Source of the DNA: Ignisphaera sp.
GTDB taxonomy: Archaea; Thermoproteota; Thermoprotei_A; Sulfolobales; Ignisphaeraceae
Length of the DNA stretch: 21,270 nt
Assembly: GCA_038889075.1 (NCBI GenBank)
Contig: JAWAHS010000017.1
Coordinates: 9,483-30,752 of the forward strand
Direction: 5' to 3'
Shown here: one piece after another, positions 2,281-20,822 of the stretch
Position numbering within the stretch: the first letter of the stretch is position 1
Layout of the letters: each line of letters begins with the position of its first letter
Position numbers and translations under genes: made by a program
Notes under the pieces: generated by a model
What the model was told of the DNA's origin: nothing
Seen by the model: the letters and a program-made list of their open reading frames with translations, nothing else
Databases searched by the model: none

Positions 2281-2344
2281 CAATCCATGGTGCTATACAA
2301 ATTTATACTCTATTAGAATATAGATAGGTATAGAGGTGTGTAGT

Positions 2345-4160: not shown

Positions 4161-4730
4161 ATAGTACTGGTTGCTCTAACAGGTAGACCCGGTGTCGGTA
4201 AGAGCACAGTCTTTATGAGGGTTGTCCAGGAGCTGGACTCCCTAGGCTATAGAGTATACGGCTTCTACTGCCCCGAGGTTAGAGAGCATGGAAGGAGGAT
4301 CGGGTTTAGGATAGTCGATATTAGAAGTGGTGTATCTGGATGGCTTGCTCTGGAGCTATCAAAGGCTCAGCAGATGGGGTATGGAAGCAGTGGTAGGAGG
4401 GTAGGGAAATACGTTGTTATAGAGAGTGAGGCTGAGAGAATAGGTGTAGCAGCTCTATCGAAGCCGCCCATGGAGGGATCTGTTCTTGGAATAGATGAGG
4501 TGGGTCCTATGGAGCTATCCATAGCCAGGCTACGTCTAGAGATTATAAGAGCACTAGAATATGCTGTGAGAGGCATTGTGGTTATCCACAGGAATCTCAG
4601 TGACGTTGAGGTAGCTGGTGTACTTAGGAGAAGAGGGTTTGATGTAGTTAACGTTACGGAGGCGAATAGAGACAATCTACATAGGGAGATAATTAGAAAA
4701 TTTATACAGAGCCGCGATGCTGTTAACTGA
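4161..4730 (+). CDS. Nucleoside-triphosphatase (NTPase_1/THEP1 family)
   Basis: In-frame LTGRPGVGKST Walker A (4176-4208) upstream of ATG 4215; GFYCPEVRE-GRRIGF, VGKYVV and Walker B IDEVGPMEL. Start inferred as non-canonical (see findings). Confidence 0.88.
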   Translation: MVLVALTGRPGVGKSTVFMRVVQELDSLGYRVYGFYCPEVREHGRRIGFRIVDIRSGVSGWLALELSKAQQMGYGSSGRRVGKYVVIESEAERIGVAALSKPPMEGSVLGIDEVGPMELSIARLRLEIIRALEYAVRGIVVIHRNLSDVEVAGVLRRRGFDVVNVTEANRDNLHREIIRKFIQSRDAVN

Positions 4731-4736
4731 CTGAAA

Positions 4737-5966
4737 ATGGTCTGTCCAAACGGCTACATACTAGCTGTTGAAGGTCTTGCTAAGATATGTATTCCGGATC
4801 CCAATCTGTATAGGAGGGAGGATGGTCTATACGAACCATCGTGGGCACCGGTATTCTACAATCCTAGAATGGTTGAGAATAGGGACATCTGCGTAGCGGT
4901 ACTAAGGGTAGAGCTGGGAAGAGGTAGATGTACAGCTGTAGTGGATCCCCTTGCTGCTACAGGTGTAAGGGGTATAAGGATAGTATTGGAGGCTGGACTA
5001 CCTAAAGGAGCAACCGTTTATATGGGTGATATATCCCCGGATGCCATCGAGATTATGAAGCGTAATATAGAGTTAAACGGTGTAGTGGAGGGAGTTTGTG
5101 TAAGGCATGCCGATGCTAACGAGCTTATGCACCAGCTAGCTAAAAGAGAGGGTGTAGCAATTAGCTATATAGATATAGATCCTTTCGGTAGCCCTGCCCC
5201 CTTTACACACACGGCACTAGATTGCGTTAAGAGATATGGTGTAGTTGCACTAACGGCAACGGATCTAGCGGTTCTCGAGGGTAGGTATAGGGATAAGCTG
5301 CTTAGGAGATACGGTGTAGTGGGTACTAGGGTATTACAGTCAAGGGATATAGCATTAAGGGTTCTACTATCGTTTGTTATGAGGATTGCTGCTGTATACG
5401 ATAAGTATATCGAGCCACTGCTATCCTACGCTATGAACCACTATGCAAGAGTCTATGTTAGAGTATCTAGAGGAGGTACGAGAGCGGGTGAGGTTCTCGA
5501 TAGCTGTCTGGGAGCTGTACGATGCTGTAGCAGATGTGGATACTACTATATGCACCGTATTGAAGATACTGTGGATAGAGCTGCACGGTGTCCAGTATGT
5601 GAAGGGAAGCTGGAACCGATATACCCTGTATGGATATGCCCTACATCAAGTAGCGAGTATCTTGCAGAACTCGTGGAGATCGCCAAAGGGATGCATTGGT
5701 TGAGGGAGAGCTCTAGACTGCTACTGGGGGGCATCTACAGAACGTCTATGCAAAATGCATTAACAGCTAGACTAACATATATAGCCAAGGCCATTAAGAC
5801 GGATACGCCACCTGTTCAAAGCATTATAGATTGTCTTATACAAAAGGGGTTTACAGCAGCGAGAAGCTATACATATAGTGATGGAGTTGTAACAAGCGCT
5901 CCAATAGATGATGTAGTGGAGTGTGTAAGGAGTAGAGCACTAGGTAGATCTATGGATAGAAGTTAG
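4737..5966 (+). CDS. trm1: tRNA (guanine-26,N2)-dimethyltransferase
   Basis: APVFYNPRMVENRD, DPLAATGVRGIR, IDIDPFGSPAPF, LTATD and a CxxC...CxxC zinc motif. Confidence 0.93.
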   Translation: MVCPNGYILAVEGLAKICIPDPNLYRREDGLYEPSWAPVFYNPRMVENRDICVAVLRVELGRGRCTAVVDPLAATGVRGIRIVLEAGLPKGATVYMGDISPDAIEIMKRNIELNGVVEGVCVRHADANELMHQLAKREGVAISYIDIDPFGSPAPFTHTALDCVKRYGVVALTATDLAVLEGRYRDKLLRRYGVVGTRVLQSRDIALRVLLSFVMRIAAVYDKYIEPLLSYAMNHYARVYVRVSRGGTRAGEVLDSCLGAVRCCSRCGYYYMHRIEDTVDRAARCPVCEGKLEPIYPVWICPTSSSEYLAELVEIAKGMHWLRESSRLLLGGIYRTSMQNALTARLTYIAKAIKTDTPPVQSIIDCLIQKGFTAARSYTYSDGVVTSAPIDDVVECVRSRALGRSMDRS

Positions 5967-6003
5967 AGTGGTTGCCCGTGTCCGTTAGCTAGGTTTTTTG
6001 GCT

Positions 6004-6241
6004 GTTTTTGGTTTTTCTGGACACGGGTTAATCCCACCTGTTTATCCCCTTTCTCCCCGCCTACGGCTCCAGGGGGCCGCCGGGATTCCCAGAACCATCG
6101 GCGAAGAGCAGTTCACAGAGCCTCGTCCCTCGCCAACAACTCACCGGCTCACAGGCTCCCAGCTACTAGAACACGTAGATGCTTATATGCCTTTACGTCG
6201 AACCCATGGAAATAACTCAAATAACCAGAAAAACCAAAAAC
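6004..6241. repeat. Perfect 17-bp inverted repeat (6004-6020 GTTTTTGGTTTTTCTGG / 6225-6241 CCAGAAAAACCAAAAAC)
   Basis: Direct reverse-complement comparison; the arms enclose a GC-rich core. Confidence 0.85.
6072..6160 (-). ncRNA. Candidate structured small RNA (long GC/GU rod), family not recognised
   Basis: Minus strand GGGAGCC..GCCGG..GAGUUGUUGGCGAGGG pairs with CUCUUCGCCGAUGGUUC..CCGGC GGCCCCC; the many G-U pairs work only on the minus strand; TATA-like ATATAAG lies ~22-28 nt upstream; locally high GC. Confidence 0.45.
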
Positions 6242-6425
6242 TAAACAACATACAGACAGTCCAGCTCAAGTGTATCACTAGGTAGACTATTGTGTATCTG
6301 AGAAGCATCTTGCAATTTATTGATGTTGCCGAGCTTCATAGCTAAATGCATACACTCTTATTAGCCTACACAGAGTATATCTACTAGACACAGCTGCACA
6401 TTAATGGCTGCAAGGTTAGTGGATC

Positions 6426-6839
6426 ATGGAGAGCGCAACCCGTCTTAGCGATGAAGAGGTGCTCGTCTACAACATCATTAAGCAGGAGACGAGAGTGTCT
6501 GGAGGGATACTCCAGTCGAAATTGAGGGAGAGGGATGAGCTCAGATCTATACAGTCGAGAAGGCTATATACAATAGTGAATAAACTTGCTAGAGCTAACC
6601 TCATTAAGAGAATAGCCATAAACGACAATGGTCAGACAGCATACCTTCTACAGGCAATCGATCAGCGTAATCAGATTGGAGAGCAGCGGATATCCATTCC
6701 AGATTCGGAGATCTTTGCAATACCATGTAACGGCTGTAGAAATCTCTATATGTGTGGCGAGGGGAGGGTCTACAACCCTCTAAAGTGTCCATACCTGACA
6801 AGATTCCTAATGGAGAGAGCATACACTGTAAAGACCTAG
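6426..6839 (+). CDS. tfeB: TFE beta subunit / RPC34(C34)-like protein (winged helix + 4Fe-4S domain)
   Basis: N-terminal wHTH (GGILQSKL...IVNKLARANLIKR) and C-terminal IPCNGCRNLYMCGEG...PLKCPYL four-Cys motif; located between trm1 and tfb as in Sulfolobales. Confidence 0.85.
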   Translation: MESATRLSDEEVLVYNIIKQETRVSGGILQSKLRERDELRSIQSRRLYTIVNKLARANLIKRIAINDNGQTAYLLQAIDQRNQIGEQRISIPDSEIFAIPCNGCRNLYMCGEGRVYNPLKCPYLTRFLMERAYTVKT

Positions 6840-6970: not shown

Positions 6971-7837
6971 CTATATGTATACCGTTATGGTTAGTTTATC
7001 GAGTATATCTCTGTATCGGTTCCTTATAGTTACCTCTGTAACATTTGCTGCCTGGGCTACCTGTCTCTGGGTCTTCTTCTCATCGAGGATTATGGAGGCT
7101 ATATATACAGCTGCTGCAGCTATACCAGCCGGATCCTTACCCTCTGTCAGTCCATTTCTTTTAAGAACATCGATTAGCTTGGCTGATAGCATGTAGACCT
7201 GCTGGCTTAGACCTAGATTAGATACTATTTGGGGGATGAATTTGCGTGGATCGATGTATGCTTTAAATTCGCTTAGATCTACCTTAAAGTGTATCTCTGA
7301 TATCAGTTTCCAGTACTCCTCTTCATCTATATTAAATCTAGCTATAACTTCCCTAATCCTGATGGGAATTCCGTGCTTTCTAGCTGCTAGTACTATCGAT
7401 GCCGCTGCTAGCATCTGTAGCCTATTTACCTTCGGCTGTAGGATTGCGAATACCTTTCTAAGTATTATTGCAGCCGTCTCCTTAACTTGATCTGGTATAC
7501 TGAGATAGGCACATATTTGGTTGAGGTGTGTAAGTGCTTCAACAATCTTCCGCTCAGCTCTATTTACACGTATCTTCCTCTGGAGCAGAGCCAGCTTTCT
7601 ATTTTTAATCATCTCCCTATATCTACGAACAGAGAGATCTATCTCTGTAGAGAGACCTGAGTCGTGGACTGCATGTGTTATTACATTGGTGTGTGCTCTT
7701 CTGTTCCACTCATCAGAGGTATAGGCTCTCCAGTCAGGTCCTAGGGAAACCCTATCCTCATCAACAACCTCACCAGTATCAGCACAGATAACCTCACCTC
7801 TCTCCTGATCAACAACGAGCTCGTTACAGCTCACCAT
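6971..7837 (-). CDS. tfb: Transcription initiation factor IIB (TFB paralogue)
   Basis: RGEVIC...GPDWRAY B-reader, two cyclin repeats, GKDPAGIAAAAVYIAS and TQRQVAQAANVTEVTIRNRY HTH. Confidence 0.95.
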   Translation of the reverse strand: MVSCNELVVDQERGEVICADTGEVVDEDRVSLGPDWRAYTSDEWNRRAHTNVITHAVHDSGLSTEIDLSVRRYREMIKNRKLALLQRKIRVNRAERKIVEALTHLNQICAYLSIPDQVKETAAIILRKVFAILQPKVNRLQMLAAASIVLAARKHGIPIRIREVIARFNIDEEEYWKLISEIHFKVDLSEFKAYIDPRKFIPQIVSNLGLSQQVYMLSAKLIDVLKRNGLTEGKDPAGIAAAAVYIASIILDEKKTQRQVAQAANVTEVTIRNRYRDILDKLTITVYI

Positions 7838-8365: not shown

Positions 8366-8932
8366 TTATCTATTTGGAGCAAGGTTGTGTTTTTCTAGAA
8401 TCATCTCCAGATAGGATTTGGATATGAGTTGTTTTGGTAGGTTTAGGGTGTCCAGTATTTTAGCTAACATTTCTCTGAACTCCTCTATGGAGTTGGCATT
8501 CTCTATCTCAATTTCTACAAATTTTCCAAGATCTCTAACATCATCTAGGAATATCTTTGCTACTCCATATCTATATATCTTTCTCCTCTTGTATACCGTT
8601 ATGTATTTTGTAAAACCTAGCTCTCTAAATATCTCTAGCAGTCTGTGTCCATCATCTATAGCTACTGTTATCTCGGTTCTAACCTTTAGATCCTTTGTTT
8701 TTCTGGGACCTTTGTATGTAACCTCATACCTCCCCCTATCGGAGGTTGCAGCTCTGTATATTCTTATCCTCAGCGCTATATCCCTGGACACCATGTCTAT
8801 ACATGGGCTTAGATCGATGTATATATCCTCCTCCTCGGTTGCGTCTACAATGTGTGCACCTATAGCCCGTAGTCTTCTCTCAATTTCATCGAGATCCTCT
8901 ACCTCTACCTTAGCCTCGTACTCTATAGCCAA
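8366..8932 (-). CDS. cyaB: CYTH-domain protein (class IV adenylate cyclase-like / triphosphate tunnel metalloenzyme)
   Basis: EYEAK (ExExK), ALRIR, TYKGP, KRRKIY, LDDVRDLGKFVEIE and KSYLE motifs. Confidence 0.88.
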   Translation of the reverse strand: MAIEYEAKVEVEDLDEIERRLRAIGAHIVDATEEEDIYIDLSPCIDMVSRDIALRIRIYRAATSDRGRYEVTYKGPRKTKDLKVRTEITVAIDDGHRLLEIFRELGFTKYITVYKRRKIYRYGVAKIFLDDVRDLGKFVEIEIENANSIEEFREMLAKILDTLNLPKQLISKSYLEMILEKHNLAPNR

Positions 8933-9011
8933 CTACGTACACCAATCTCTTTTTAAATATCTAAAGCTTTTATTTGCTACTATAGCTACTATGCCTCTGA
9001 AGGGTTAGTAT

Positions 9012-9767
9012 ATGGCTATCTCTAAAAATAGCTTTATATTGATAGATTACGTGATTAGGATTAAGGATACGAATGAGCTGGTTGATACAACGATAGAGGA
9101 GGTTGCAAAGAAGGAGAATAGATACGATGTTGAGAAGACCTACGAACCCCTACTTGTTATCGTTGGTGAGAATAGGGTTATAAGAGGTCTTGAGGAGCAT
9201 ATAGAGAATTTTGGCGAAGTGGATAAGGAGCTTACTATAGAGATACCGCCTGAGAAAGCCTACGGCTCTAGAGATCCGTCAAAGGTTAGAATAGTGAGTA
9301 TTAGGGAGCTTGTGAAAAACAATATTGTGCCAGAGGTTGGTAAAACCGTTGATATAGGTGGTCAGATAGGTATAGTTAAGGCCGTTACCGGTGGTAGGGT
9401 ACTTGTAGACTTTAACCATCCACTAGCTGGAAAGACCCTAATCTGTAGCTATAGGATAGTAAAGGTCGTTGAAGATGATGTAGAGAAGATAAAGCTTCTA
9501 CTACATAGAAGGTACAGAAAGATACCTACGGAGAGATTCAACGTATCCATAAACACAAACGATAACAGTATAACCATCGAATTGCCTAGGGAGATACACC
9601 TCGATAGAGATATACAGATCGTAAAAGCACTTGTAGCTGAAGAGATCTATAGATACATTGGAAAGTACACAACCATAACATATATAGAAAGATACAGTAG
9701 ACTCATAGAAACAGGTAGTAAACAAGAAGCAGTAGAGAAGCATATAGAGGCAGCTCCAACTACATAG
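9012..9767 (+). CDS. FKBP-type peptidyl-prolyl cis-trans isomerase (long archaeal SlyD-like type)
   Basis: VDTT, VIRGLEE, IPPEKAYG and VLVDFNHPLAGKTL plus the archaeal C-terminal domain. Confidence 0.93.
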   Translation: MAISKNSFILIDYVIRIKDTNELVDTTIEEVAKKENRYDVEKTYEPLLVIVGENRVIRGLEEHIENFGEVDKELTIEIPPEKAYGSRDPSKVRIVSIRELVKNNIVPEVGKTVDIGGQIGIVKAVTGGRVLVDFNHPLAGKTLICSYRIVKVVEDDVEKIKLLLHRRYRKIPTERFNVSINTNDNSITIELPREIHLDRDIQIVKALVAEEIYRYIGKYTTITYIERYSRLIETGSKQEAVEKHIEAAPTT

Positions 9768-10366: not shown

Positions 10367-11377
10367 TTAAAGCACTATATCTATACCGTTGTATGTTTTT
10401 ATTTTAACCCTGTTCTCCCCTTCGACAACCTTTCCTAGAATATGTGCTTTAAGATTGTGGTTTTTAATAACCTTTAGTAGCGGGTCTAGATTCTCAAGAG
10501 GTGTTGTCATTATAAGCCCTATACCCATGTTGAAAACCCTATACATTTCACTTGCATCTACATTGCCTAACTTCATTATTATCTCGAATATCTGGGGTGG
10601 TTTAGGCATCTCCATAACTATGTCTAGCCTATCTAGAACTCTTTTAACCTTTGTAAAAGCTCCTCCAGTGATATGTGCTACACCATGGACTATGCCTTTA
10701 TCTATAGCCTCTAGTACCATGCTGGAGTATATTGCTGTAGGTTTTGCTAGTTCTTCCCCGAGTTCAATACCCTCAACAATAGCTCCATAATCTCTAACTG
10801 TATTTTCGATGATTCTTCTAACCAATGTGTATCCATTGGCATGTAGACCCCAACTTTCTACACCTATAACAAAGTCTCCTACTACAGCTTTATTCACAAA
10901 CCCCGTTCTCTTAATAGCTAAAACAGTGCATACAACATCGACGCCACTTACAAGGTCTCTTAGTATAGCTGTTTCACCACCTAGAATAGGTATACGAGCA
11001 ATTTTAGCGGCTTTAATGAGGCCCTCTGCTATTTCCTTAAATATATCCGGATTATCGCTAGGCATAGCGATATAGTCTACTAGAGCTATGGGCTCACCAC
11101 CATCGCATACAACATCATTTACATTCATAGCTAGGCAGTCCCATCCAGCAACCCATAGTCTGCCAAGTCTTTCCAACACAATGGTTTTTGTTCCAACACC
11201 ATCAACGTGAAGCATGAGTTTCAAATCTCCTATCTTTATAGAGGTTCCATACCCACCGAGGCCTTCTACTTCTACACCAAGTTCTTGCAACAAATCGTTA
11301 ATAAGCTTGAGGACGTACTTATGCATATACCTATGCCTATCAAGATCCACCCCTGCTTTTGGATAACTCCATGACAT
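10367..11377 (-). CDS. purM: Phosphoribosylformylglycinamidine cyclo-ligase (AIR synthetase)
   Basis: YPKAGVD, VDGVGTK, AMNVND, GGETA, GLHANGYTL, AHITGGA and MYRVFNMGIG. ATG 11377 likely; 11404 is possible. Confidence 0.95.
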   Translation of the reverse strand: MSWSYPKAGVDLDRHRYMHKYVLKLINDLLQELGVEVEGLGGYGTSIKIGDLKLMLHVDGVGTKTIVLERLGRLWVAGWDCLAMNVNDVVCDGGEPIALVDYIAMPSDNPDIFKEIAEGLIKAAKIARIPILGGETAILRDLVSGVDVVCTVLAIKRTGFVNKAVVGDFVIGVESWGLHANGYTLVRRIIENTVRDYGAIVEGIELGEELAKPTAIYSSMVLEAIDKGIVHGVAHITGGAFTKVKRVLDRLDIVMEMPKPPQIFEIIMKLGNVDASEMYRVFNMGIGLIMTTPLENLDPLLKVIKNHNLKAHILGKVVEGENRVKIKTYNGIDIVL

Positions 11378-11620
11378 ATAAACCGCCAAGCCAGCCGCAC
11401 TCATACATAAACGATAAGATTAAGTTTTATAAAACTATGTTTGTAAAGTGGCTATTCTTCTAGTAGCAAACATCGCTAGCGGAGCGGCACTCATTTTTAC
11501 ATAATCTAGAATATAATCAGCTCTATATACATAGTTTATATAAATTATATGAAAGTTATGTAAACGAGAGATTTATATACAGTACACTACACTAAGTAAA
11601 TTATGTATAGGCGGAAGTCC
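11378..11620. promoter_or_regulatory. Divergent purM/purC promoter region with AT-rich dyads
   Basis: Perfect palindrome AGTTTTATAAAACT (11423-11436), near-palindrome ATAGTTTATATAAATTAT (11531-11548), TTTATATA at ~11572. Confidence 0.6.
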
Positions 11621-12349
11621 ATGGAAATGCTCTACGAAGGAAAAAGTAAACGTATTTATGTAAAAAACAGCGATACGCTGTTGATGGAGTTTAAGGACGA
11701 GGTTACAGCTATGGATGGTACTGTAAAAGCTGTAGCAAAAGGTAAAGGTATTATAAATGCACGTATTTCTGCATACCTCTTTGAATTTCTTGAAGAAGCA
11801 GGTATGAGGACACATTACATAGATTACGATGGTATGCGAACACTTACTGTTAAAAGACTATCCATAATACCTATAGAGGTTATAGTTAGGAACTATTCCT
11901 ATGGATCTCTTCTTAAGCGTATGCCCTTGTACAAACCTCTTCAGAAACTCGATCCTCCACTAGTTGAGCTCCACTTTAAAGATGATTCTCTTCACGATCC
12001 ACTCATCCTTGTAGAGGATGTACTTAATGCCGGTCTTCTTACAAAGAACGATATGCAAACGATAGCAAATATATCTCTCGAGGTTAACAAACTGCTTAAG
12101 GATCTATTTCTATCTAAGAATCTTACGCTAATTGATATGAAGCTCGAGTTTGGTAGAGATAGAAATGGGGATATAGTTTTAGCTGATGAAATATCGGGTG
12201 ACACATTTAGAGTTCTAGATGAGAATGGCGAACACCTTGACAAAGAGATCTTTAGGAAATCAAAGGATGCAAACCTTATGATGAAAGCTTACGTGAATCT
12301 ATGCAAACGTTTAGGAGTGGGGGTGGATGATGTCCATGTATATGGTTGA
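11621..12349 (+). CDS. purC: SAICAR synthetase
   Basis: LYEGKSKRIY, IPIEVIVRN, FKDDSLHDP, LIDMKLEFG and LADEISGDTFR. Start 11603, 11621 or 11627. Confidence 0.96.
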   Translation: MEMLYEGKSKRIYVKNSDTLLMEFKDEVTAMDGTVKAVAKGKGIINARISAYLFEFLEEAGMRTHYIDYDGMRTLTVKRLSIIPIEVIVRNYSYGSLLKRMPLYKPLQKLDPPLVELHFKDDSLHDPLILVEDVLNAGLLTKNDMQTIANISLEVNKLLKDLFLSKNLTLIDMKLEFGRDRNGDIVLADEISGDTFRVLDENGEHLDKEIFRKSKDANLMMKAYVNLCKRLGVGVDDVHVYG

Positions 12350-12587
12350 AGTTGTGATAACGAATAAGAAGGGGGTAAGAGATCCTGAGGGAGAGACCAT
12401 ACATAGGCAGCTTATACTAAGAAAAGGGTTTAACTCTGTTAAAGGTGTTAGAGCTGGAAAATATCTTCTATTCTCTGTTGAATCCAAAAGCCCTGAAGAA
12501 GCGGTGGAAATCGTTAAAACTCTATGCGAAAAGCTCCGAATATACAATCCTGTTGTACACGATATAGAGGTTGAGATCCGTGGTTAA
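12336..12587 (+). CDS. purS: FGAM synthase subunit PurS
   Basis: KKGVRDPEGETI, VRAGKYL and LC...YNPVV motifs; lies between purC and purQ. Confidence 0.93.
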   Translation: MYMVEVVITNKKGVRDPEGETIHRQLILRKGFNSVKGVRAGKYLLFSVESKSPEEAVEIVKTLCEKLRIYNPVVHDIEVEIRG

Positions 12588-13269
12588 AATAGCGATTCTC
12601 AAGTTTCCTGGTACAAACTGTGATGAAGATGTACGCCATGTTTTAAAGAATGTAATGGGTTTAGATTCTGAGATCGTTTGGTATAGGGAGTATGTAGAAG
12701 GATCTTACGATGCCATTATCATTCCAGGAGGTTTTAGCTATGGCGATTGGCTTAGGGCTGGAGCTATAGCTGCAAGAAGCGGGGTTATGGAGGAAATAGG
12801 TAATGATGTATCTAGGGGAGTACCTGTTCTAGGGATATGCAACGGTTTTCAGATACTTGTTGAAGCAGGTCTTCTACCTGGGGCACTTCTCCCAAATGAT
12901 AGTGGGAGATTCGAATGTAGATGGATAAAGGTTGTTGTAGAGAATCCGAAAGGTCCATGGCTATCGCTAGCAGAAGATGGGCAGGTGATCGATATGCCTA
13001 TAGCTCATGCTGAAGGCAGGTACTACTTAGATGATGAAACCTATACAAGGCTTTTGGGAAGCGTATCTATTCTAAGGTATGCTAAAGGTTGGAATCCGAA
13101 TGGCAGCATCTACGATATTGCTGGAATAGGTAGTGAAAATGGCTTAGTCTTAGGGCTTATGCCCCATCCAGAACGGGCTTCAGAGCCCGACTTAGTGCCT
13201 AGAGGCTTCACTATGGGTGGGAGAGTGATATTTGAAAGCCTTGCCCATTCTCTGAAGAAAGGGTGGTAG
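12580..13269 (+). CDS. purQ: FGAM synthase glutaminase subunit PurQ
   Basis: FPGTNCD, PGGFSYGDWLRAG, GICNGFQ (catalytic Cys), IAHAEG and MPHPER (His/Glu); triad intact. Confidence 0.96.
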   Translation: MVKIAILKFPGTNCDEDVRHVLKNVMGLDSEIVWYREYVEGSYDAIIIPGGFSYGDWLRAGAIAARSGVMEEIGNDVSRGVPVLGICNGFQILVEAGLLPGALLPNDSGRFECRWIKVVVENPKGPWLSLAEDGQVIDMPIAHAEGRYYLDDETYTRLLGSVSILRYAKGWNPNGSIYDIAGIGSENGLVLGLMPHPERASEPDLVPRGFTMGGRVIFESLAHSLKKGW

Positions 13270-13271
13270 CA

Positions 13272-15458
13272 ATGCCTCTAACACGTGAGGAGATAGAGGA
13301 GATAAGAGGCATTCTAGGTAGAGAGCCGACGGTCGAAGAACTCGCCATGTTTGAGGCTCAGTGGAGTGAACACTGCTCATATAAGAGCTCTAGACTACTG
13401 CTAAAGTTACTACCTACAACAGGTAAGCACGTTCTAATTGGTCCAGGGAGAGATGCACCTGCAGTGGAGCTGTTTCCAGATGTAGCTGTTGTTTTTAAGA
13501 TCGAAAGCCATAACCACCCCTCAGCTATAGACCCATACGATGGTGCTGCAACAGGTATTGGAGGTATCGTAAGGGATATTCTAACTCTCGGTGCTAAACC
13601 AATAGCCTTACTAGACCTTTTGTACATGGGTGACCCAGGGGATCCGCATGCCAACTGGCTTATAAGAGGTATTGTTAAGGGTATTAGCGATTATGGAAAT
13701 AGGATAGGTGTACCAACAGTAGCTGGGGATACCTGGTTCGATGCTTCATTCAATAAGCAACCGCTTGTAAACGTTGTATGTGTAGGTATAGTACCAGTAG
13801 GTAGGATCGTGACCAATGATCCTAAACCCGGTGACTACGTTGTTATAATAGGTAATGCAACAGGTAGAGATGGTCTTTTGGGTAGCAGTTTTGCTTCTAA
13901 ACCTCTTACAGGCGAAGATGAGATAGCGGCTGTTCAGGTGGGTGATCCTCTAACTGAGAAGCTTCTTATAGATGTTGTACAGGTATTGACCGAGGGCAAC
14001 CTTGTTAACTACATTAAGGATCTTGGTGGAGGAGGTCTAACGACTGCCATATGTGAAACAGCTGCTGATTATAATCTCGGTGCTGAAATACATATAGATA
14101 AACTCCATACAAGACAAGAACTTACACCTTTAGAGCTTCTCGTTTCTGAAAGCCAGGAGAGAATGCTATTAGCTGTTGATCCAGAGAAGCTTGGTAGAGT
14201 TGTTGATTTGCTAAATAGATTTGAGCTTAGCTACAGCATCATAGGCAGATTTGATAGTAGTGGGAGAATAAGGATATACTATAGGGATAGACTTGTAGCC
14301 GATGTCCCTACTAAAGAGCTTGCAAAACCTAGGGCTATAAGAAGACTTTCGAAAACACCTTTAGAGGCATTGAAAGGCTCTACACCTGTAATAGACATAC
14401 CGCTACCTGAAGATATAGGTAAATGTATTCTACTTCTCCTCTCATCACCTAATATAGCCTCTAAGAGATGGATATACGAGCAGTATGATCACGAGGTAGG
14501 TGCTAGAACTGTTATCAAACCTGGCTACGGAGATGCTGCAGTTCTTAGACTTCTTGATGGTAGTAAAAGGGGTTTAGCAGTTAAAGGCGATGCCAACCCT
14601 AGGTATACATACCTGGATCCATTCTCTGGGGCAGCTAATAGTGTAGCGGAGTGCTTTAGAAACCTTGTATCCGTAGGCTCAAAACCTATAGCAGTAGTCG
14701 ATGAGCTGAACGCAGGTAATCCGGAAAAACCTGAGCATTTCTGGTACTTTGAAGAAATGCTGAAGGGTATTGCCTGGATAGTTGAAGAACTGGGGCTGCC
14801 TATTGTTGGTGGAAAAGTTAGTTTCTACAATGAGGATGCCCAGGGAAGGCAGATAAAACCTACAACAACTATCGTAGGTATTGGCAGGATAGACAATATA
14901 GAGCTCGCTAAGACCCTTGATCTCAAGGCTGTTAACTCGGTAATAGCTGTTATTGGCACTACGTTTCCTGAAATAGGTGGTAGCGAGTATCTGTATAGAA
15001 TTCATGGGCTTGAGTTCGGCGAAATTCCGAGACCTAGACCGGTATCGGAGCTTAGGAACGCTGATTTTATACTTAAAGCAATAGAGGAGAGGCTCGTTCT
15101 ATCTGTTCACGATATAGGTTTGGGAGGTCTCGCTACAGCTGTTCTTGAAATGGCTATAGCTGGCGGTATAGGTGTAGATATAGATGTATCTAAAGTTCTA
15201 TGCAGAGGTTGTTATAGGGTTGACGAGGTACTGTTTTCAGAAACTCAAGCCAGATACGCGGTTGAGGTTGATGGTAGTAAGCTAGAGAGGTTTCTTATAC
15301 TAGCCGAGCAACTAAACGTACCTGTTTCCATTATAGGACGTAGTACCAATAGTAGGAGGTGTGCAATAAGATTTGGTGATAGGATTTTGCTTGAGGAGGA
15401 TATAGATTTCCTCAAAGACATTTACGAGAATAGCCTATATAAGGAGCTCGAGTGGTAG
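13272..15458 (+). CDS. purL: FGAM synthase subunit PurL (small type)
   Basis: WSEHCSYKSS, KIESHNHPS, GAATGIGGIVRD, DLGGGGL, SESQERM, EQYDHEV and GGKVSFYNE. Confidence 0.97.
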   Translation: MPLTREEIEEIRGILGREPTVEELAMFEAQWSEHCSYKSSRLLLKLLPTTGKHVLIGPGRDAPAVELFPDVAVVFKIESHNHPSAIDPYDGAATGIGGIVRDILTLGAKPIALLDLLYMGDPGDPHANWLIRGIVKGISDYGNRIGVPTVAGDTWFDASFNKQPLVNVVCVGIVPVGRIVTNDPKPGDYVVIIGNATGRDGLLGSSFASKPLTGEDEIAAVQVGDPLTEKLLIDVVQVLTEGNLVNYIKDLGGGGLTTAICETAADYNLGAEIHIDKLHTRQELTPLELLVSESQERMLLAVDPEKLGRVVDLLNRFELSYSIIGRFDSSGRIRIYYRDRLVADVPTKELAKPRAIRRLSKTPLEALKGSTPVIDIPLPEDIGKCILLLLSSPNIASKRWIYEQYDHEVGARTVIKPGYGDAAVLRLLDGSKRGLAVKGDANPRYTYLDPFSGAANSVAECFRNLVSVGSKPIAVVDELNAGNPEKPEHFWYFEEMLKGIAWIVEELGLPIVGGKVSFYNEDAQGRQIKPTTTIVGIGRIDNIELAKTLDLKAVNSVIAVIGTTFPEIGGSEYLYRIHGLEFGEIPRPRPVSELRNADFILKAIEERLVLSVHDIGLGGLATAVLEMAIAGGIGVDIDVSKVLCRGCYRVDEVLFSETQARYAVEVDGSKLERFLILAEQLNVPVSIIGRSTNSRRCAIRFGDRILLEEDIDFLKDIYENSLYKELEW

Positions 15459-15460
15459 CC

Positions 15461-16840
15461 ATGGGCGGAGTTGCTGTATATGCTTCTACAAAACCTAACT
15501 CCAGTGCTACGGATCTAGTTCTAGCTCTATTAATAGAGTTACAGCATAGAGGTCAGGAAGCAACAGGTATTACTGTAGCCTATACCGACGGCAATATGCT
15601 ACGCCATACCAGTAGAGGTACAGCACTCGATCTACTGAATAACGGGTTTGCACCCCAGATCCCCACCGGCACTGTCTTTGGTGTACTAGGATACACTAAG
15701 TACTCAGCATCTGTAGGACTAGATCCAGAGTCCCAGCCGATTATTGTAGAAGATAAAGGGTTTAGAATAGCTGTAGCTTTCGATGGTGCTATTGCTAACT
15801 ATAGGCTGCTAGCCAAGGAACTTAATTTAAGGAATCGCGAAAGCTACGTCCACGCATTTTCTGAAGCTATACATAAGCTAGCGCTAGAGTATGGTAAAGA
15901 TGTTGTAGAAGCTATTAGAGAGCTATCGACCATGGCTATCGGGGGGTACTCGATAACCATCATAACATCTGAGCCTAGGATCGTTATAGCTAGGGATCCC
16001 CACGGATTCAGACCCTTGGCATACTTATTTGATGGGGAGAAGTTCTTGGCGTCTTCTGAGAGCTCAGCATTAGAGGTTCTTGGTTATAGCAGGTGGAGGG
16101 AGGTCCTACACGGGGAGATAATATCCTTTGATGGCAAATCGCTAGAGGCTACAAGGGTTCCTGCAGAAGCTCCTACCCCATGCGTATTTGAGTATGTTTA
16201 CATAGCGAGGCTAGACACCATATTCAATGGTATCAACGTGTACGATGTAAGGGTTGGGCTGGGATACGAGCTTGCAAAAATAGCTCCAGCTAATGCTGAT
16301 GTTGTTATACCTGTACCGGATAGTGGACGAGCTGCTGCTATAGGGTATAGCAAAGGTAGTGGTATACCGTTTGAAGAGGGGCTTGTAGCTAATAGGTATC
16401 TCGGTAGAGGATTCATAATGTCTCCAGGGCTGCGAGAGGTTATAGCGAAGCTGAAGTACGGCATCATAAAGAGCTCTATACACCGTAAAAGGATTGCACT
16501 GGTCGATGATTCTATAGTACGCGGTACAACTATGGCTGCCATAGCTTCTAGGTTGAGAGATTTAGGAGCTAAGGAGGTTCACATAAGGATCTCGTGCCCA
16601 CCCTTCATGTATCCATGCTTTGTTGGGGTAGACGTTGCATCAAAGAAAGAGCTTCTTGCTTGGAAGACTATGGGTAGCAGAGAGATAGCTAGGGCTCTAA
16701 ATGCTGATACCGTAGCTTTCAATACGATTGAAAATCTGATCGAGGTTGTTGGGCTACCAAGCTTATGTATAGCATGCTTCACAGGCATCTATCCATTCAA
16801 AGATTTTTCCGCTGAAGATCTTGGGGAGACGTTCTCCTAG
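15461..16840 (+). CDS. purF: Amidophosphoribosyltransferase paralogue 1 (glutaminase residues degenerate)
   Basis: LQHRGQE, ARDPHGFRPL, CVFEYVY, VIPVPDSG, LVDDSIVRGTT, PCFVGVD and CIACFTG; the N-terminus is MGG rather than MCG. Confidence 0.92.
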   Translation: MGGVAVYASTKPNSSATDLVLALLIELQHRGQEATGITVAYTDGNMLRHTSRGTALDLLNNGFAPQIPTGTVFGVLGYTKYSASVGLDPESQPIIVEDKGFRIAVAFDGAIANYRLLAKELNLRNRESYVHAFSEAIHKLALEYGKDVVEAIRELSTMAIGGYSITIITSEPRIVIARDPHGFRPLAYLFDGEKFLASSESSALEVLGYSRWREVLHGEIISFDGKSLEATRVPAEAPTPCVFEYVYIARLDTIFNGINVYDVRVGLGYELAKIAPANADVVIPVPDSGRAAAIGYSKGSGIPFEEGLVANRYLGRGFIMSPGLREVIAKLKYGIIKSSIHRKRIALVDDSIVRGTTMAAIASRLRDLGAKEVHIRISCPPFMYPCFVGVDVASKKELLAWKTMGSREIARALNADTVAFNTIENLIEVVGLPSLCIACFTGIYPFKDFSAEDLGETFS

Positions 16841-16850
16841 GTGTATAGAG

Positions 16851-18107
16851 TTGTTTGGACTACTAGCAATATATGCATTTGATGAGCTTTGGACTTTAAG
16901 TACGTACGTAAAGTATGGATTAATGGCCTTACAACATAGAGGTGCCGAGAAGTACGTGATTTGTGTAGCCAATGGTAACGTTAGCTGCTATAGCTCAAAG
17001 AACATGGATGAGGTAGTCGATAAAGCGTCGAGTAATAGGGTTATAGGCGCTACCTACGCTGATAACGACGAACATCTATATCGAGAAACAATAGACGGTT
17101 TCGACGTAGCTCTTTTAGCTGAAAGAGCTCATAGCGTTTTCGACGATCTTGTTAGAGGAATTGGTAGGGCTATGAAGAGCGGTAGTACAAATGATATTGT
17201 AGCTGCATTCAACCTCTATAGCAATGTAGATGGCATCCCCTCATTTGTAGCCATCTCAAGCAATGGTGAAGTACTTGCCTGGAGAAGCCCAGGAGGATTA
17301 ACACCCATGGTTTTAGGAGGATACGGTTTTGATATGGCTATAATTTCTTCAGAGTCTACTGCTATAGATATACTTGATGCTGATATTAGGAGGTTCGTAG
17401 CTCCCGGAGAGGGCTTCTATATCTCTAGATACCTACTGAAAAACTTTAGAGTAGAAACCTCCGTTAAATCAAGACTGTGTTTGTTCGAGCTACTATACTT
17501 AGCTAGACACGATGCCGTTATTGATGGTGTTAGCGTCTACGAGTTTAGGAAGAGATTGGGGGAGGAGCTAGCTAGGGCATTTGATAAAGATGTAGATATT
17601 GCTGTAGGTGTTCCAGAAACGGCTCTACCTTATGCAATAGGTTTCTCAAATGCTATAGGTAGACCCTTTGAACTCGCATTTGTTGCCACCGGTGGTAGGG
17701 CTAGGTCTATGCTTAAATTCGATCCACGTGAAAAAATCGTAGCTATACATCTTAAGATGAATCCTATTAGAAGTAGCTTAGAGGGGAAGAAGATAGCCTT
17801 GGTGGATGATAGCATGGTCACGGGCTCTACAGTAAAAACGGTTTCGCAGATCCTGAGGTACAGAATCGGTGTTAACGAAATACACCTACTTATAGCAAGC
17901 CCACCGCTAATCAGTCCATGTCCTTACGGTGTTCTAAAGCTAGGTACGGAAAATCTTTTGGCGGCAAATCTTACTAAGGAGATGGCAGAGAAGTATCTGG
18001 AGGTGGATTCTCTCCACTGGCTTAGCATTGAAAGTATTGATCGTGTAGCGAAAATGTTTAGGCTAAATCTCTGTGGAAGGTGTTTCGGAGTGCATTTCTT
18101 TGGGTGA
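16851..18107 (+). CDS. purF: Amidophosphoribosyltransferase-like paralogue 2 (crenarchaeal purF2 type)
   Basis: YGLMALQHRG, CLFELLY, VGVPET, LVDDSMVTGST, PCPYG and CGRCF; TTG start at 16851 after an AGGTG RBS. Confidence 0.85.
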   Translation: MFGLLAIYAFDELWTLSTYVKYGLMALQHRGAEKYVICVANGNVSCYSSKNMDEVVDKASSNRVIGATYADNDEHLYRETIDGFDVALLAERAHSVFDDLVRGIGRAMKSGSTNDIVAAFNLYSNVDGIPSFVAISSNGEVLAWRSPGGLTPMVLGGYGFDMAIISSESTAIDILDADIRRFVAPGEGFYISRYLLKNFRVETSVKSRLCLFELLYLARHDAVIDGVSVYEFRKRLGEELARAFDKDVDIAVGVPETALPYAIGFSNAIGRPFELAFVATGGRARSMLKFDPREKIVAIHLKMNPIRSSLEGKKIALVDDSMVTGSTVKTVSQILRYRIGVNEIHLLIASPPLISPCPYGVLKLGTENLLAANLTKEMAEKYLEVDSLHWLSIESIDRVAKMFRLNLCGRCFGVHFFG

Positions 18108-18111
18108 GAAT

Positions 18112-19602
18112 ATGAGAGTTCTACTCGTAGGTTCTGCTGCAAGAGAACATGCGTTGGTCGAGCTAATGAGAAAAAGCCCCCAAGAACCTAGAGTATCCGT
18201 GGTCATGGACTACCGAAACCCGGGTTTGATGAGGGTTGCCGATAGAACGGGTGGTAGATGGTCTATAGCTAAGACGACAGATCCTGTAGCTGTTGCTAAG
18301 ATTGCTGAAGATGTTTCACCAGATTTAGTGGTTATAGGACCTGAGGAGCCATTGTTTAGCGGTGTTTCGACATACCTTAGGGAAAAAGGTTTTATAGTAT
18401 TTGGTGCTGATAGCAGAAGCGCTGAGGTAGAGAAGAGCAAGGTATTTGCGAGAACGCTTATGTGGAAATACGGAATCCCAGGCAGACTCTACTTCAAGGC
18501 CTTTAAAGATATTGAGGAAGCTAGGAAGTTTATTGAATTTGCTGGAGATGTGGTTATAAAGCCTGCTAGACAGGCAGGTGGAAAAGGTGTTAAGGTACTT
18601 AAGGATACCCATGCCTATCTTTCTAAGGATAAGGCTGAGGTAAAGAAGAGCTACCTAGATAAACTATTTAGCGATATGGCTGGCTATGGAGATATGGACT
18701 ACAAGGTCTTGGTAGAGCAGAGAGTTGAGGGTGTTGAGTATACAGCTCAGGTAATTACTGACGGTAGCTACGTGCTATTCCTACCTATTGTTCAGGACCA
18801 TCCACATCTATTTGATTTTGATACAGGGCCTGAGACAGGTGGTATGGGTAGCATCTCGGGCCCTGGCTGGACCCCGCCTTTCTTAACAGTTGAAGAGTTT
18901 GAGAAAACTAGAGAAATAGTTACACTAGTTATTAGGAGCTTGATAGCTGAGGTAGGCTGTAACTACGTAGGGGCCTTTGCAGGGCAGATGATGCTGACAG
19001 GACTATGGGGACCCACGGTTATCGAATTCTATAGCAGATTTGGTGATCCAGAGATGGCAAATCTTGTTCCGATAGTAAAGAGCGATTTTCTTGAGCTTCT
19101 AGATAAAGCTGCTAGACAGAAGCTTGCTTCAGCAAAGATAGAGGTAGATGAGGAGAGGGTTGTCATAGTAAAGGCTGTAGCACCCGCAGGCTATCCGGAT
19201 AACAGGAAGCTGGCTTCAGGACACCCGGTTGCGGTAGAGGAGGACAAGATTACGGAGCTAGGCTGTGAAACAATGTATGCTAGTGTTGAGCTTATAGACG
19301 GCGTTCTCTATACAAAGGGTTCTAGAGTTGTAGAGATAGTATGCTATGGCTCGAGCTACGAAGAGGCTTATACCAAGTCCGAGAAAGCCGCTACCTATAT
19401 CCATGCTCTAGATGGCTGGACCCTGTTCCATAGAAGCGATATAGGCTCTGCATGGCTTCTAAACGAGAGAATTAGGTTAGCTGAAAAAGTAAGGAGGATC
19501 TACAGAAGCAGGGCTGCTAAGGGATTACTCGGAGAGGTTTACGTATGGATTCCCGGGGAAGGTATTTATTCAAACCCCCTCCTATCTCCCGTCAGGTGGT
19601 AG
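18112..19602 (+). CDS. purD: Phosphoribosylamine-glycine ligase (GAR synthetase)
   Basis: MRVLLVGSAAREHAL, VIGPEEPL, AGGKGV, GPETGGMGS and EFYSRFGDPE; C-terminal extension after HRSDIG. Confidence 0.96.
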   Translation: MRVLLVGSAAREHALVELMRKSPQEPRVSVVMDYRNPGLMRVADRTGGRWSIAKTTDPVAVAKIAEDVSPDLVVIGPEEPLFSGVSTYLREKGFIVFGADSRSAEVEKSKVFARTLMWKYGIPGRLYFKAFKDIEEARKFIEFAGDVVIKPARQAGGKGVKVLKDTHAYLSKDKAEVKKSYLDKLFSDMAGYGDMDYKVLVEQRVEGVEYTAQVITDGSYVLFLPIVQDHPHLFDFDTGPETGGMGSISGPGWTPPFLTVEEFEKTREIVTLVIRSLIAEVGCNYVGAFAGQMMLTGLWGPTVIEFYSRFGDPEMANLVPIVKSDFLELLDKAARQKLASAKIEVDEERVVIVKAVAPAGYPDNRKLASGHPVAVEEDKITELGCETMYASVELIDGVLYTKGSRVVEIVCYGSSYEEAYTKSEKAATYIHALDGWTLFHRSDIGSAWLLNERIRLAEKVRRIYRSRAAKGLLGEVYVWIPGEGIYSNPLLSPVRW

Positions 19603-19604
19603 GT

Positions 19605-20822
19605 ATGGGAAGAAGAGAGTTCCTAACAACCCCTATGTTCGGTAAATCGGTAAAGATGGTGTTGTTAGGCTCGGGTGAGCTAGGTAAGGAGATAGCTATA
19701 GAGGCTCAGAGGCTAGGAGTAGAGGTTATAGCTATCGATAGATATGATTGGGCTCCAGCTATGCATGTAGCACACAGGAGATATGTAGTAGATATGATGA
19801 ATTCCAACGCTGTTAAAGCTATTGTTGAAAAAGAGGATCCGGATGTAATCGTACCTGAGATAGAGGCCATCTCAACGGAAGCTCTTGAAGAACTAGAGAG
19901 CAGAGGGTATTTCGTAGTACCTAATGCTAGAGCTGTAAAAATAGCTATGAATAGAATAGAGCTTAGGAGGTTTGCTGCTGAACAGCTTAAGCTACCAACA
20001 ACTAGGTATATGTTTGCATCAAATCCAGATGAAGCTGTAGAGGCTTGTGAAAAAGTTGGATATCCGTGCCTTATAAAACCTGAGATGAGTAGCAGTGGAC
20101 ATGGCCATGCTAAAGTTGTAGAGCCTTCGCCTAAAGCTATTAAAGAAGCCTATAGCCACTCGGTAGCACATGCAAGAGGCAGAAGCTCGCGTGTAATAGT
20201 CGAAGAGTATGTAGGTTTGGAGGCAGAGTTCACAGTCCTAGCCTATAGGTATGTCGACGATTGGTCTATACGTACAGAAGTATGCGAACCTGTTGAACAC
20301 TGGAGATACGGCCAGTACCACTACGTAGAATCGTGGCAGCCATCTATAAAATCTAGAGAGGTGCTTGAAGAAGCCTCCAGGATAGCTGTAGCTACTGCTA
20401 ATGGATTGGGAGGTCTAGGGATTTTCGGTGTAGAGATATTCCTTACTAAGGATGGCAGAGTTCTATTTAGCGAAGTCGCTCCAAGACCTCACGATACGGG
20501 TATGGTGACGATGGTTAGCCAAGAGCTAAGCGAATTCGCAATCCATGTAAGAGCGGTGCTTGGACTGCCGGTACCAAAGCCGCGAATTACATCACCTGGT
20601 GCTAGCATTGCTATATATGCTGAAGACGATAATGTATGGGCTCCAAAGATATATGGGGTATACGAAGCACTAAAGATACCTGGTGTGGATGTTAGGATCT
20701 TTGGTAAACCATTTACATATGCAGGTAGAAGGGTAGCTGTCATACTGGCAAGGGGATTCACGGTTGAAGAAGCCCTTGAGAAGGTGCGGAGAGCATCGAA
20801 ATACGTCAGTATAAAGTCTTAG
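19605..20822 (+). CDS. purT: Formate-dependent GAR transformylase
   Basis: LLGSGELGKE, APAMHVAH, PEIEAI, KPEMSSSGHG, FSEVAPRPHDTGMVT and RIFGKP. Confidence 0.95.
   Translation: MGRREFLTTPMFGKSVKMVLLGSGELGKEIAIEAQRLGVEVIAIDRYDWAPAMHVAHRRYVVDMMNSNAVKAIVEKEDPDVIVPEIEAISTEALEELESRGYFVVPNARAVKIAMNRIELRRFAAEQLKLPTTRYMFASNPDEAVEACEKVGYPCLIKPEMSSSGHGHAKVVEPSPKAIKEAYSHSVAHARGRSSRVIVEEYVGLEAEFTVLAYRYVDDWSIRTEVCEPVEHWRYGQYHYVESWQPSIKSREVLEEASRIAVATANGLGGLGIFGVEIFLTKDGRVLFSEVAPRPHDTGMVTMVSQELSEFAIHVRAVLGLPVPKPRITSPGASIAIYAEDDNVWAPKIYGVYEALKIPGVDVRIFGKPFTYAGRRVAVILARGFTVEEALEKVRRASKYVSIKS

Follow-up and report, generated by a model that had tools for sequence, protein, structure and literature searches.

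A PurF orthologue with a dismantled glutamine site beside PurF' in the purine operon of an Ignisphaera species

In a 21,270-nucleotide stretch of an Ignisphaera genome, hereafter the window (G000:C17:9483-30752), the genes for purine synthesis form an intact operon on the forward strand in the order purC-S-Q-L-F-F'-D-T-E, and two adjacent genes, copy 1 and copy 2, encode proteins of the amidophosphoribosyltransferase (PurF) type. The names carried by the closest database proteins indicate the genus Ignisphaera. Alignments and phylogeny identified copy 1 as an orthologue of true PurF whose glutamine-hydrolysing site has been dismantled, with the fold and the phosphoribosyl pyrophosphate (PRPP) motifs kept. 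Judged from its sequence, copy 2 is an ordinary crenarchaeal PurF', Cys-less in every relative examined. A preliminary description of this DNA had taken both copies to be glutaminase-dead, and the absence of the nucleophile Cys1 and of the glutamine-site residues from both alignments bore this out. It had also treated the copies as equivalent tandem paralogues, a view that had to be given up, since copy 2 belongs to the PurF' family and only the loss in copy 1 is unusual. PurF' is already known; the new part is a true PurF orthologue that has lost its glutamine site. We consider the chance somewhat better than even that, in this lineage with a dismantled PurF glutamine site, free ammonia serves PurF and/or PurF' as the nitrogen source for making phosphoribosylamine from PRPP.

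The two PurF-type proteins

The N-terminus of copy 1 reads MGGVAVY, and codon 2 is GGC (Gly, 15464-15466) in the place of Cys1. An earlier start or a propeptide Cys was ruled out by a stop six codons upstream: the frame is open from 15443 only (TAA at 15440-15442), and the six codons in between encode no Cys. Compared with Bacillus subtilis PurF (1ao0), GHVRYAT has become GYTKYSA, AHNGN has become AFDGA and the Asp of SSDTE is gone. The positions concerned are numbered here as His70, Arg73, Thr76, Asn101 and Asp127, which we take to be the Escherichia coli PurF numbering of residues with roles in the glutamine site; nothing relevant was retrieved when the literature was searched for papers that name Arg73, Asn101 and Asp127. 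The His, Arg and Thr of the H(V/T)RYST motif were invariant (100%) in 113 canonical PurF sequences, and Arg73, Asn101-Gly102 and Asp127 were likewise 100% conserved across them. The survey was extended to the 107 alignment columns that were each conserved in at least 90% of these 113 sequences. In the N-terminal domain the window lineage differed at Cys1, His70, Arg73, Thr76, the Gly of STSGG, Asn101 and Asp127. The differences in the C-terminal domain were conservative only (F to I, P to L, S to T, P to S, S to C, M to V and Y to F), and none of the copy 1 differences among the 107 columns fell in the PRPP-site motifs.

The cysteines of copy 1 that match the iron-sulphur (Fe-S) ligands in the alignment to 1ao0 are C241, C386, C436 and C439, and the corresponding residues of copy 2 are C210, C357, C408 and C411; these cysteines are invariant or nearly so in both the PurF and the PurF' alignments. 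The statement of the preliminary description that the PRPP loops and four Fe-S-type cysteines are kept in both copies was confirmed by the alignments to 1ao0 and within the families. On the NCBIfam TIGR01134 model for glutamine PRPP amidotransferase PurF (EC 2.4.2.14), which has an equivalog cut-off of 350 bits, copy 1 scored below the cut-off at 312.2 bits (model positions 14-432). Its Cys1-bearing relatives mostly scored 350-428 bits, yet eight with verified Cys1 scored only 325-350. Among the features that mark a PurF, copy 1 lacks Cys1, the glutamine-site residues and the score, and has the phosphoribosyltransferase (PRTase) motifs, the fold and the Fe-S cysteines; it presumably still functions as the aminase half of a PurF. 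Its AlphaFold 2 (AF2) model had a predicted local distance difference test (pLDDT) value of 88.7 and a predicted template modelling (pTM) score of 0.89, with only residues 83-87, the former glutamine loop, below 50. Compared with solved PurF structures, it gave template modelling (TM) scores of 0.84-0.89.

The substitutions of copy 1 are fixed in the population sampled. Its cluster at 90% identity comprised 12 members on more than 25 contigs, 10 of them spanning the N-terminus and 11 the sites. MGGVAVY was found in 10/10 and GYTKYSAS together with AFDGAI in 11/11 of the respective members, and the Asp127 position held Tyr in nine members and His in two, a mixture indicating that this position is now variable. 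The substitutions are kept in all variants of the window lineage down to approximately 92% identity. The stretch was present in the metagenomes that 10 studies had obtained from hot springs. Codon 2 is also spanned by contigs of four further runs (four studies), and among the differences listed none lay at this codon. An assembly or sequencing error was ruled out by the cluster members and the contigs of these four runs. Between the window and a metatranscriptome strain, 14 single-nucleotide polymorphisms in purF were too few to weigh (N-terminal domain, 6 nonsynonymous and 4 synonymous; C-terminal domain, 0 and 4), as were those of purF' (3/6), purL (4/3) and purD (5/6) in the same strain pair.

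The alignment of copy 2 with 22 orthologues begins at the TTG codon at 16851 (MFGLLAIYAFDELW), and residue 2 of copy 2 is Phe. Together with the AGGTG motif upstream, this supports the start that the preliminary description had preferred. A start at 16821 with processing to a Cys at 16842 was rejected, as the upstream stretch is unconserved, stops occur in relatives (in several of them within a few codons upstream of the purF' start) and homology begins at 16851. The Cys codon at 16842 falls in the Shine-Dalgarno-like motif or spacer and has no counterpart in relatives. On TIGR01134, copy 2 scored 182.7 bits over model positions 142-429 only. The proteins closest to it are of the PurF' type without GATase Pfam domains (81-39% identity), and alignment of the PurF and PurF' families with hhalign gave a probability of 100 over 409 columns. 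According to hhalign and MAFFT, copy 2 has no equivalents of the glutamine-site Arg and Asp. In 56 PurF' sequences, the column equivalent to Cys1 held A in 14, T in 12, S in 11, G in 7 and other residues in the rest, C occurring in none. The family has motifs of its own (yAFDelW, LqHRG, YGFDmai..SE, VVGVPETAxPYA, aTGg.r.RSml, LKmNP and DDSmVTGxTxKT, plus the four Cys, in 22 orthologues), all of them present in the copy 2 of the window. Invariant PRPP-site residues of the family are R285, K302, D319, D320, S321, G325 and T327. The pyrophosphate (PPi) loop reads VPETA where PurF has VPDSG, and the flexible loop reads ATGGRARSML where PurF has NRYLGRGFI. The AF2 model of PurF' (pLDDT 91.0) gave TM scores of 0.80-0.84 to PurF.

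The family was described previously by Brown, Hoopes, White and Sarisky 2011 (Biol Direct 6:63; PMC3261824). Every crenarchaeon of that study carried a Cys-less PurF' in addition to a PurF with Cys, the genes for both lying close to other pur genes, and the authors proposed, without a test, that PurF' depends on NH3. One PurF', P0149, lies on a 3.9-kb contig and is 81% identical to that of the window, the next PurF being known only at 63%. P0149 therefore implies that a sister lineage, nearer than any of the PurF sequences indicate, has yet to be sampled.

Recurrence of the loss and its residue signature

The x-C-G-I/V start, GH(V/T)RYST, (F/V)NG and the Asp were present in 24/24 relatives inspected, 16 of the same genus and 8 others, in line with the preliminary description, which had twin purF genes known from Sulfolobales, with Cys1 kept in one copy; such a pair is the norm among relatives. 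The closest database protein to copy 1, P0004, is 63% identical and has canonical sites. In a tree of 77 PurF sequences, copy 1 was sister to P0004 (Shimodaira-Hasegawa-like approximate likelihood ratio test, SH-aLRT, 97) within a five-row clade (100). Cys1, Arg73 and Asn101 were all present in 115 of the 119 closest PurF homologues; P0045, P0048, P0054 and P0068 were dead like copy 1.

The TIGR01134 model was then searched against 325 genomes of the order (E <= 1e-35). Matches were obtained in 123 genomes, 116 of which had two or more (PurF plus PurF'). A PurF above the cut-off was found in 104 genomes; the N-terminus was inspected in 32 of these, with Cys in all 32, and the remaining 72 matches begin at model position 1, 4 or 8. 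Full-length PurF below the cut-off numbered 13, and eight of them carried Cys1 (G209, G212, G172, G266, G169, G258, G170 and G186). The five without Cys1 belong to the window species (G000) and to G213, G214, G093 and G094, so that the loss of Cys1 across relatives, for which the preliminary description had suggested a survey, amounts to 5/117 full-length PurF genes in three lineages (G000; G213 and G214; G093 and G094). In each of the four genomes other than G000, a PurF' is present, a canonical PurF is absent and the neighbouring purL and purD are intact. The gene order is purL-purF-purF'-purD in G093 and G094, the latter being one 1.16-Mb contig; G213 and G214 have purL-purF plus purC-purF'-purD, on one contig. 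Six other species in the genus of G213 and G214 are canonical. The PurF of G093 is P0068 (99.8% identity) and that of G094 is 60% identical, both frames being intact. A separate observation concerned a Sulfolobaceae-type genome, G301, in which a 347-aa PurF frame (L083, G301:C1:44100-46200) matches only from model position 138 and looks truncated or broken; this genome still has a second match.

The tree requires three changes of state to dead PurF. A single clade for the dead sequences was rejected by the approximately unbiased (AU) test (difference in log likelihood, delta lnL, 199.9; p-AU 6.5e-5), for which the group had been fixed on residues in advance, with the first tree already in view. 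The tree and the AU test together ruled out that a dead-PurF family arose once or was spread by horizontal transfer. The same loss appears to have arisen independently at least three times in the order, and a transition repeated in this way suggests a stable functional state rather than an accident.

Replacement of Cys1 by Gly and of Asn101 by Asp is common to all three dead-PurF lineages; in P0269, which also represents the third of them, position 1 is Ala. In the dead lineages Arg73 is replaced by Lys or Gly, and Asp127 is lost or variable. In the 56 PurF' sequences the column at Asn101 held Asp in 39, Glu in 14 and Ser in 3 (hhalign and an independent joint MAFFT alignment). A broader survey comprised 150 representatives of clusters at 50% identity, eight of which are fragments; the Asp127 column was misaligned in this alignment and was therefore excluded. 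Cys stood at position 1 in 133 of the 150, with Asn101 in 132 and Ser in one, and the nine representatives without Cys1 had Asp in five, Asn in three (two with doubtful N-termini) and Ser in one. Cys-less PurF-like proteins outside the order (P0299, P0307, P0384, P0391, P0345 and P0394) have Ser or Phe at position 1, and Asp occupies the Asn101 position in four of these six; one Ser1/Asp101 cluster is labelled as a Tissierellaceae bacterium metagenome-assembled genome (MAG). The genus also has two GlmS paralogues, a canonical GlmS-A ((L/V)CGII, HNG; 686-706 bits) and a Cys-less GlmS-B (457-481 bits). The GlmS-B protein shows the same pair of replacements, MGGIF for (L/V)CGII and GDG for HNG, in 6/6 species checked.

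Two readings of this signature are offered. Asp or Glu together with a small residue 1 may form an ammonium-binding site at the channel head, or an unneeded, deamidation-prone Asn-Gly may have been replaced by its isosteric product. Thermal deamidation as the sole reason for the change from Asn to Asp is weakened by the Tissierellaceae bacterium MAG label of the Ser1/Asp101 cluster. A wider proposal, which we regard as speculative and rather doubtful, is that Cys-less class II domains were re-tooled, the glutamine pocket becoming a site of ammonium capture and deprotonation, in a recurrent glutamine-to-ammonia switch that would be completed class-wide in this species. The support counted for it is the presence of the pair in three dead-PurF lineages, in 53/56 PurF', in 6/6 GlmS-B and in 5/9 other Cys-less representatives, against 0/133 Cys-bearing ones.

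Source of nitrogen for phosphoribosylamine

The preliminary description had allowed for a canonical purF elsewhere in the genome. A search of the G000 assembly (25 contigs, 99.58% complete) found no third purF, the sole other match being a GlmS-like gene. The rest of the pathway is present, with purB and two purP genes outside the window, and glnA was also found. Neither a GATase_2 domain nor a protein of AsnB size was found in G000, where Asn_synthase matches occur only in frames of 268-399 aa; GltS-type and AsnB-type domains were likewise not found. On this assembly, no predicted class II (N-terminal nucleophile, Ntn) glutaminase domain with Cys1 was found, the position being occupied by Gly in PurF, Phe in PurF' and Gly in GlmS-B. 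The GlmS-B of G000 (G000:C2:171981-173792, locus L090; relatives L093-L102) scored 474 bits. G000 keeps GlmS-B and a 359-aa SIS-only protein; GlmS-A, present in 5/5 relatives checked, was not found in this assembly.

In the mechanism that we favour, the PRTase site or sites of PurF and/or PurF' would combine PRPP with NH3 to give phosphoribosylamine. The two proteins would probably be assembled as a PurF-like hetero-oligomer, and the product would be handed on to PurD. The pKa of ammonium is approximately 7.4 near 90 °C, and a large share of total ammonium is then NH3 at neutral pH, an abundance that would make a glutaminase dispensable to a neutrophilic hyperthermophile. A precedent from which we infer NH3-dependent synthesis here is E. 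coli PurF with Cys1 replaced, which lost the use of glutamine and still used ammonia (Mei and Zalkin 1989, as quoted in PMC3261824). Support for ammonia as the nitrogen source comes from the orthology of copy 1 and its lineage-specific loss, the intact PRTase domain, the whole pathway, the recurrence and the persistence of the state. The ammonia-dependent first step of the preliminary description is thus retained as the best-supported mechanism, proposed on sequence grounds.

The heteromer that the preliminary description had envisaged was supported by complex modelling. The PurF:PurF' heterodimer reached an interaction prediction score from aligned errors (ipSAE) of 0.77 (runs 0.76, 0.80 and 0.77), with 0.00 for the best of three controls; the mark applied was reached by 58/80 solved complexes and 2/110 mismatched pairs. 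The runs agreed in at least 86% of contacts, and the partner chain had a pLDDT of at least 85. In the model the chains meet at the dimer face of their PRTase domains, where flexible-loop residues of both take part in the contact.

Several observations weigh against ammonia-fed synthesis by these proteins. The heterodimer result may reflect the model's memory of solved PurF homodimers, and may then indicate no more than that PurF' has retained a dimer face like that of PurF. An Amt ammonium transporter was not found in the G000 genome. Tyr74, which we take to be the channel-coupling residue of PurF, is kept in copy 1 and lost in the two other dead lineages, which argues against a conserved channel role of the N-terminal domain. 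No purF/purF' match was obtained in 202/325 genomes of the order, so pathway loss is common there and purine auxotrophy seemingly widespread. PurF has also evolved faster than its neighbours in all three dead lineages; its constraint is therefore relaxed, and it may no longer be the main catalyst. In pairs with G000, identity was 53.4% for PurF versus 57.8% for PurF', as compared with 63.1% versus 58.3% in other genus pairs at similar PurF' divergence (n=80). Between G093 and G094 it was 59.9% for PurF, 69.0% for PurF', 77.9% for PurD and 73.2% for the C-terminal part of PurL, and between G213 and G214 66.2%, 79.3%, 82.1% and 81.0%, respectively. The terminal branch of copy 1 measured 0.40 versus 0.25 for its sister P0004. 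Identity to five outgroups was approximately 49% in the N-terminal domain and 65% in the C-terminal domain of copy 1, and approximately 55% and 68% in the sister. Dead PurF is still selected, but under relaxed constraint.

These observations lend themselves to other explanations. Less likely, though a serious alternative, is that PurF' acts as the ammonia-dependent PRPP aminotransferase throughout these archaea and is the sole working enzyme here, dead PurF being a structural or regulatory pseudoenzyme partner, for instance with feedback-nucleotide sites or in the hand-over to PurD. This would fit the strong conservation of PurF', its own motifs and its invariant PRPP-site residues, the contrast in G000 between its unchanged rate of evolution and the raised rate of PurF, and its higher conservation relative to dead PurF in both other dead lineages. 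The co-occurrence of the two proteins in 116 of the 123 genomes with matches and a modelled interface formed by the PRTase-domain dimer face are also as expected for such a partnership. However, a pure scaffold would not need the PRPP-site motifs that dead PurF has kept in three lineages, and PurF' departs from PurF at the PPi and flexible loops, so that its own catalytic competence is putative.

The accelerated evolution of dead PurF could also be a sign of decay, of this first step or of the pathway as a whole, with purines salvaged and the purF genes becoming pseudogenes. Auxotrophy is common in the order, with no purF match in 202 of its 325 genomes, and the truncated purF of G301 would fit such a course. 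We nevertheless hold decay to be improbable: the dead purF genes of five species and the population variants contain no frameshift or stop, the remaining pur genes are all intact and exceed their cut-offs, and purL and purD are 57-67% identical between the other dead lineages and G000. Moreover, the PurF proteins of G093 and G094 share only 60% identity although both frames are kept, and the changes cluster at glutamine-site residues and spare the PRPP-site motifs. It seems very improbable that a separate glutaminase, PurQ or another class I subunit, docks on the remodelled N-terminal domain and supplies ammonia; for PurQ, which the preliminary description had named, we found no support. PurQ is intact in the same operon and class I subunits are established to serve several synthases elsewhere, but none of the dead lineages has an extra gene within the operon or next to it, and PurQ is the standard subunit of formylglycinamidine ribonucleotide (FGAM) synthase, encoded beside PurS and PurL.

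Operon context and comparison with known systems

The features of the window are collected in the table. Every pur gene passed its NCBIfam cut-off except the two purF-type genes, in agreement with the intact frames and the intact operon reported in the preliminary description. Neighbouring genes overlap by 17-58 nucleotides at purS/purQ, purF'/purD and purD/purT, and purQ/purL overlap as well, as expected for tight operon coupling. Contigs of a metatranscriptome run match 13812-16005 (purL-purF) and 16173-19227 (purF-purF'-purD) at >99% identity, a weak hint, as DNA is possible in such a library, that both segments are transcribed. Three open reading frames of the window (5998-6285, 6426-6839 and 8418-9008) had no Pfam match.

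Table. Genes, motifs and substituted residues of the window (positions counted from its first nucleotide)
Feature	Position	Strand	Remarks
GatB/GatE N-terminal part	1-609	-	ordinary housekeeping neighbour
Nop5	1048-2280		ordinary housekeeping neighbour
fibrillarin	2336-3055		ordinary housekeeping neighbour
helix-turn-helix (HTH) protein	3135-4151		ordinary neighbour
NTPase	4215-4730		ordinary neighbour
Trm1	4737-5966		ordinary housekeeping neighbour
TFB	6971-7837	-	ordinary housekeeping neighbour
FKBP-type isomerase	9012-9767		ordinary housekeeping neighbour
purM	10367-11404	-	divergent from operon; TIGR00878 258 bits vs cut-off 236
purC	11603-12349	+	over NCBIfam cut-off
purS	12327-12587	+	over NCBIfam cut-off
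purQ	12571-13269	+	over NCBIfam cut-off; 273 bits; GICNGFQ and HPE motifs
purL	13263-15458	+	over NCBIfam cut-off
purF orthologue (copy 1), glutaminase site predicted dead	15461-16840	+	459 aa; ATG start; TAG stop 16838-16840; TIGR01134 312 bits
YTKYSA replacing H(V/T)RYST	15692-15709	+	His70 to Tyr, Arg73 to Lys, Thr76 to Ala
Asp108-Gly109 replacing oxyanion-hole Asn101-Gly102	15782-15787	+	alignments to canonical PurF
Tyr129 at Asp127 position	15845-15847	+	His in two population variants; alignment to sister P0004 (RSDV Asp to Tyr)
copy 1 PRTase domain core	16181-16777	+	invariant columns of family alignment kept
copy 1 VPDSGR	16313-16330	+	PPi-loop region; family invariant kept
copy 1 flexible-loop motif NRYLGRGFI	16391-16417	+	family invariant kept
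copy 1 PRPP loop VDDSIVRGTT	16502-16531	+	family invariant kept
AGGTG Shine-Dalgarno-like motif for purF'	16839-16843	+	7 nucleotides before TTG; overlaps purF stop TAG
purF' (copy 2)	16851-18107	+	418 aa; TTG start; TIGR01134 183 bits, PRTase half only
PurF' Glu91-Arg92	17121-17126	+	aligned to PurF Asn101-Gly102 (hhalign and independent MAFFT)
PurF' PRPP loop VDDSMVTGST	17802-17831	+	D319, D320, S321, G325, T327 invariant in family
purD	18073-19602	+	over NCBIfam cut-off
purT	19545-20822	+	over NCBIfam cut-off
purE	from 20844, leaves window (segment to 21269)	+	over NCBIfam cut-off

When compared with the PurF' described in Brown 2011 (PMC3261824), copy 2 is a member of that family, being Cys-less, falling in its own sequence cluster and adjoining pur genes. 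Copy 1 has converged on the hallmarks of PurF', no Cys1 and an acidic residue at Asn101, and differs from it in falling in the PurF cluster by phylogeny and in having PurF-type PRPP-site motifs. The crenarchaea described in that source each had a Cys-bearing PurF, and none is left in the window species and four others. The Cys1 mutants of E. coli PurF resemble copy 1 in that Cys1 is absent; their PRTase site still uses ammonia, an ability that copy 1 would share. They are laboratory single mutants, whereas the loss described here is natural, affects six positions (Cys1, His70, Arg73, Thr76, Asn101 and Asp127), is fixed in the population and occurs with a PurF' partner. B. subtilis PurF (1ao0/1gph, 4Fe-4S) shares with copy 1 the two-domain fold (TM 0.84-0.85), four Cys and the PRPP loop, and is 33% identical to it when the structures are aligned; copy 1 lacks its N-terminal nucleophile, oxyanion Asn and the Arg/Asp pair that binds glutamine.

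The beta-lactam synthetase entries 1jgt/1mc1, which appeared in the list of the fold search for PurF', represent an AsnB-derived enzyme with an inactive Ntn domain. This is likewise a class II homologue that retains a glutaminase-like domain without glutamine hydrolysis, but it has acquired new chemistry in secondary metabolism, whereas here the primary reaction is presumably kept with another nitrogen source. GlmS-B has both replacements of dead PurF, MGGIF and GDG, in another class II amidotransferase; it differs in having a sugar isomerase synthase domain and in keeping the Arg of HTRYATHG. In the main texts of open-access papers, neither organisms devoid of a Cys1 PurF nor tests of PurF' nor the pairing of Cys1 loss with Asn101 to Asp were found to be reported, only Brown 2011 being relevant.

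The view had been that crenarchaea able to make purines all retain a Cys-bearing PurF next to PurF'. Genomes without a glutamine-competent PurF and with an otherwise intact pathway can be regarded as natural knock-outs. If such organisms make purines, Cys-less PurF-type proteins must supply the phosphoribosylamine. The ammonia hypothesis, put forward for PurF' in 2011, thereby becomes directly testable with two small proteins. Annotation pipelines give all such proteins the one name 'amidophosphoribosyltransferase', and the combination of Cys1 loss with Asn101 to Asp may serve as a signature by which class II amidotransferases that do not depend on glutamine can be annotated from sequence. The finding is also relevant to the nitrogen economy of hot habitats, in which free NH3 abounds and the lifetime of phosphoribosylamine is very short.

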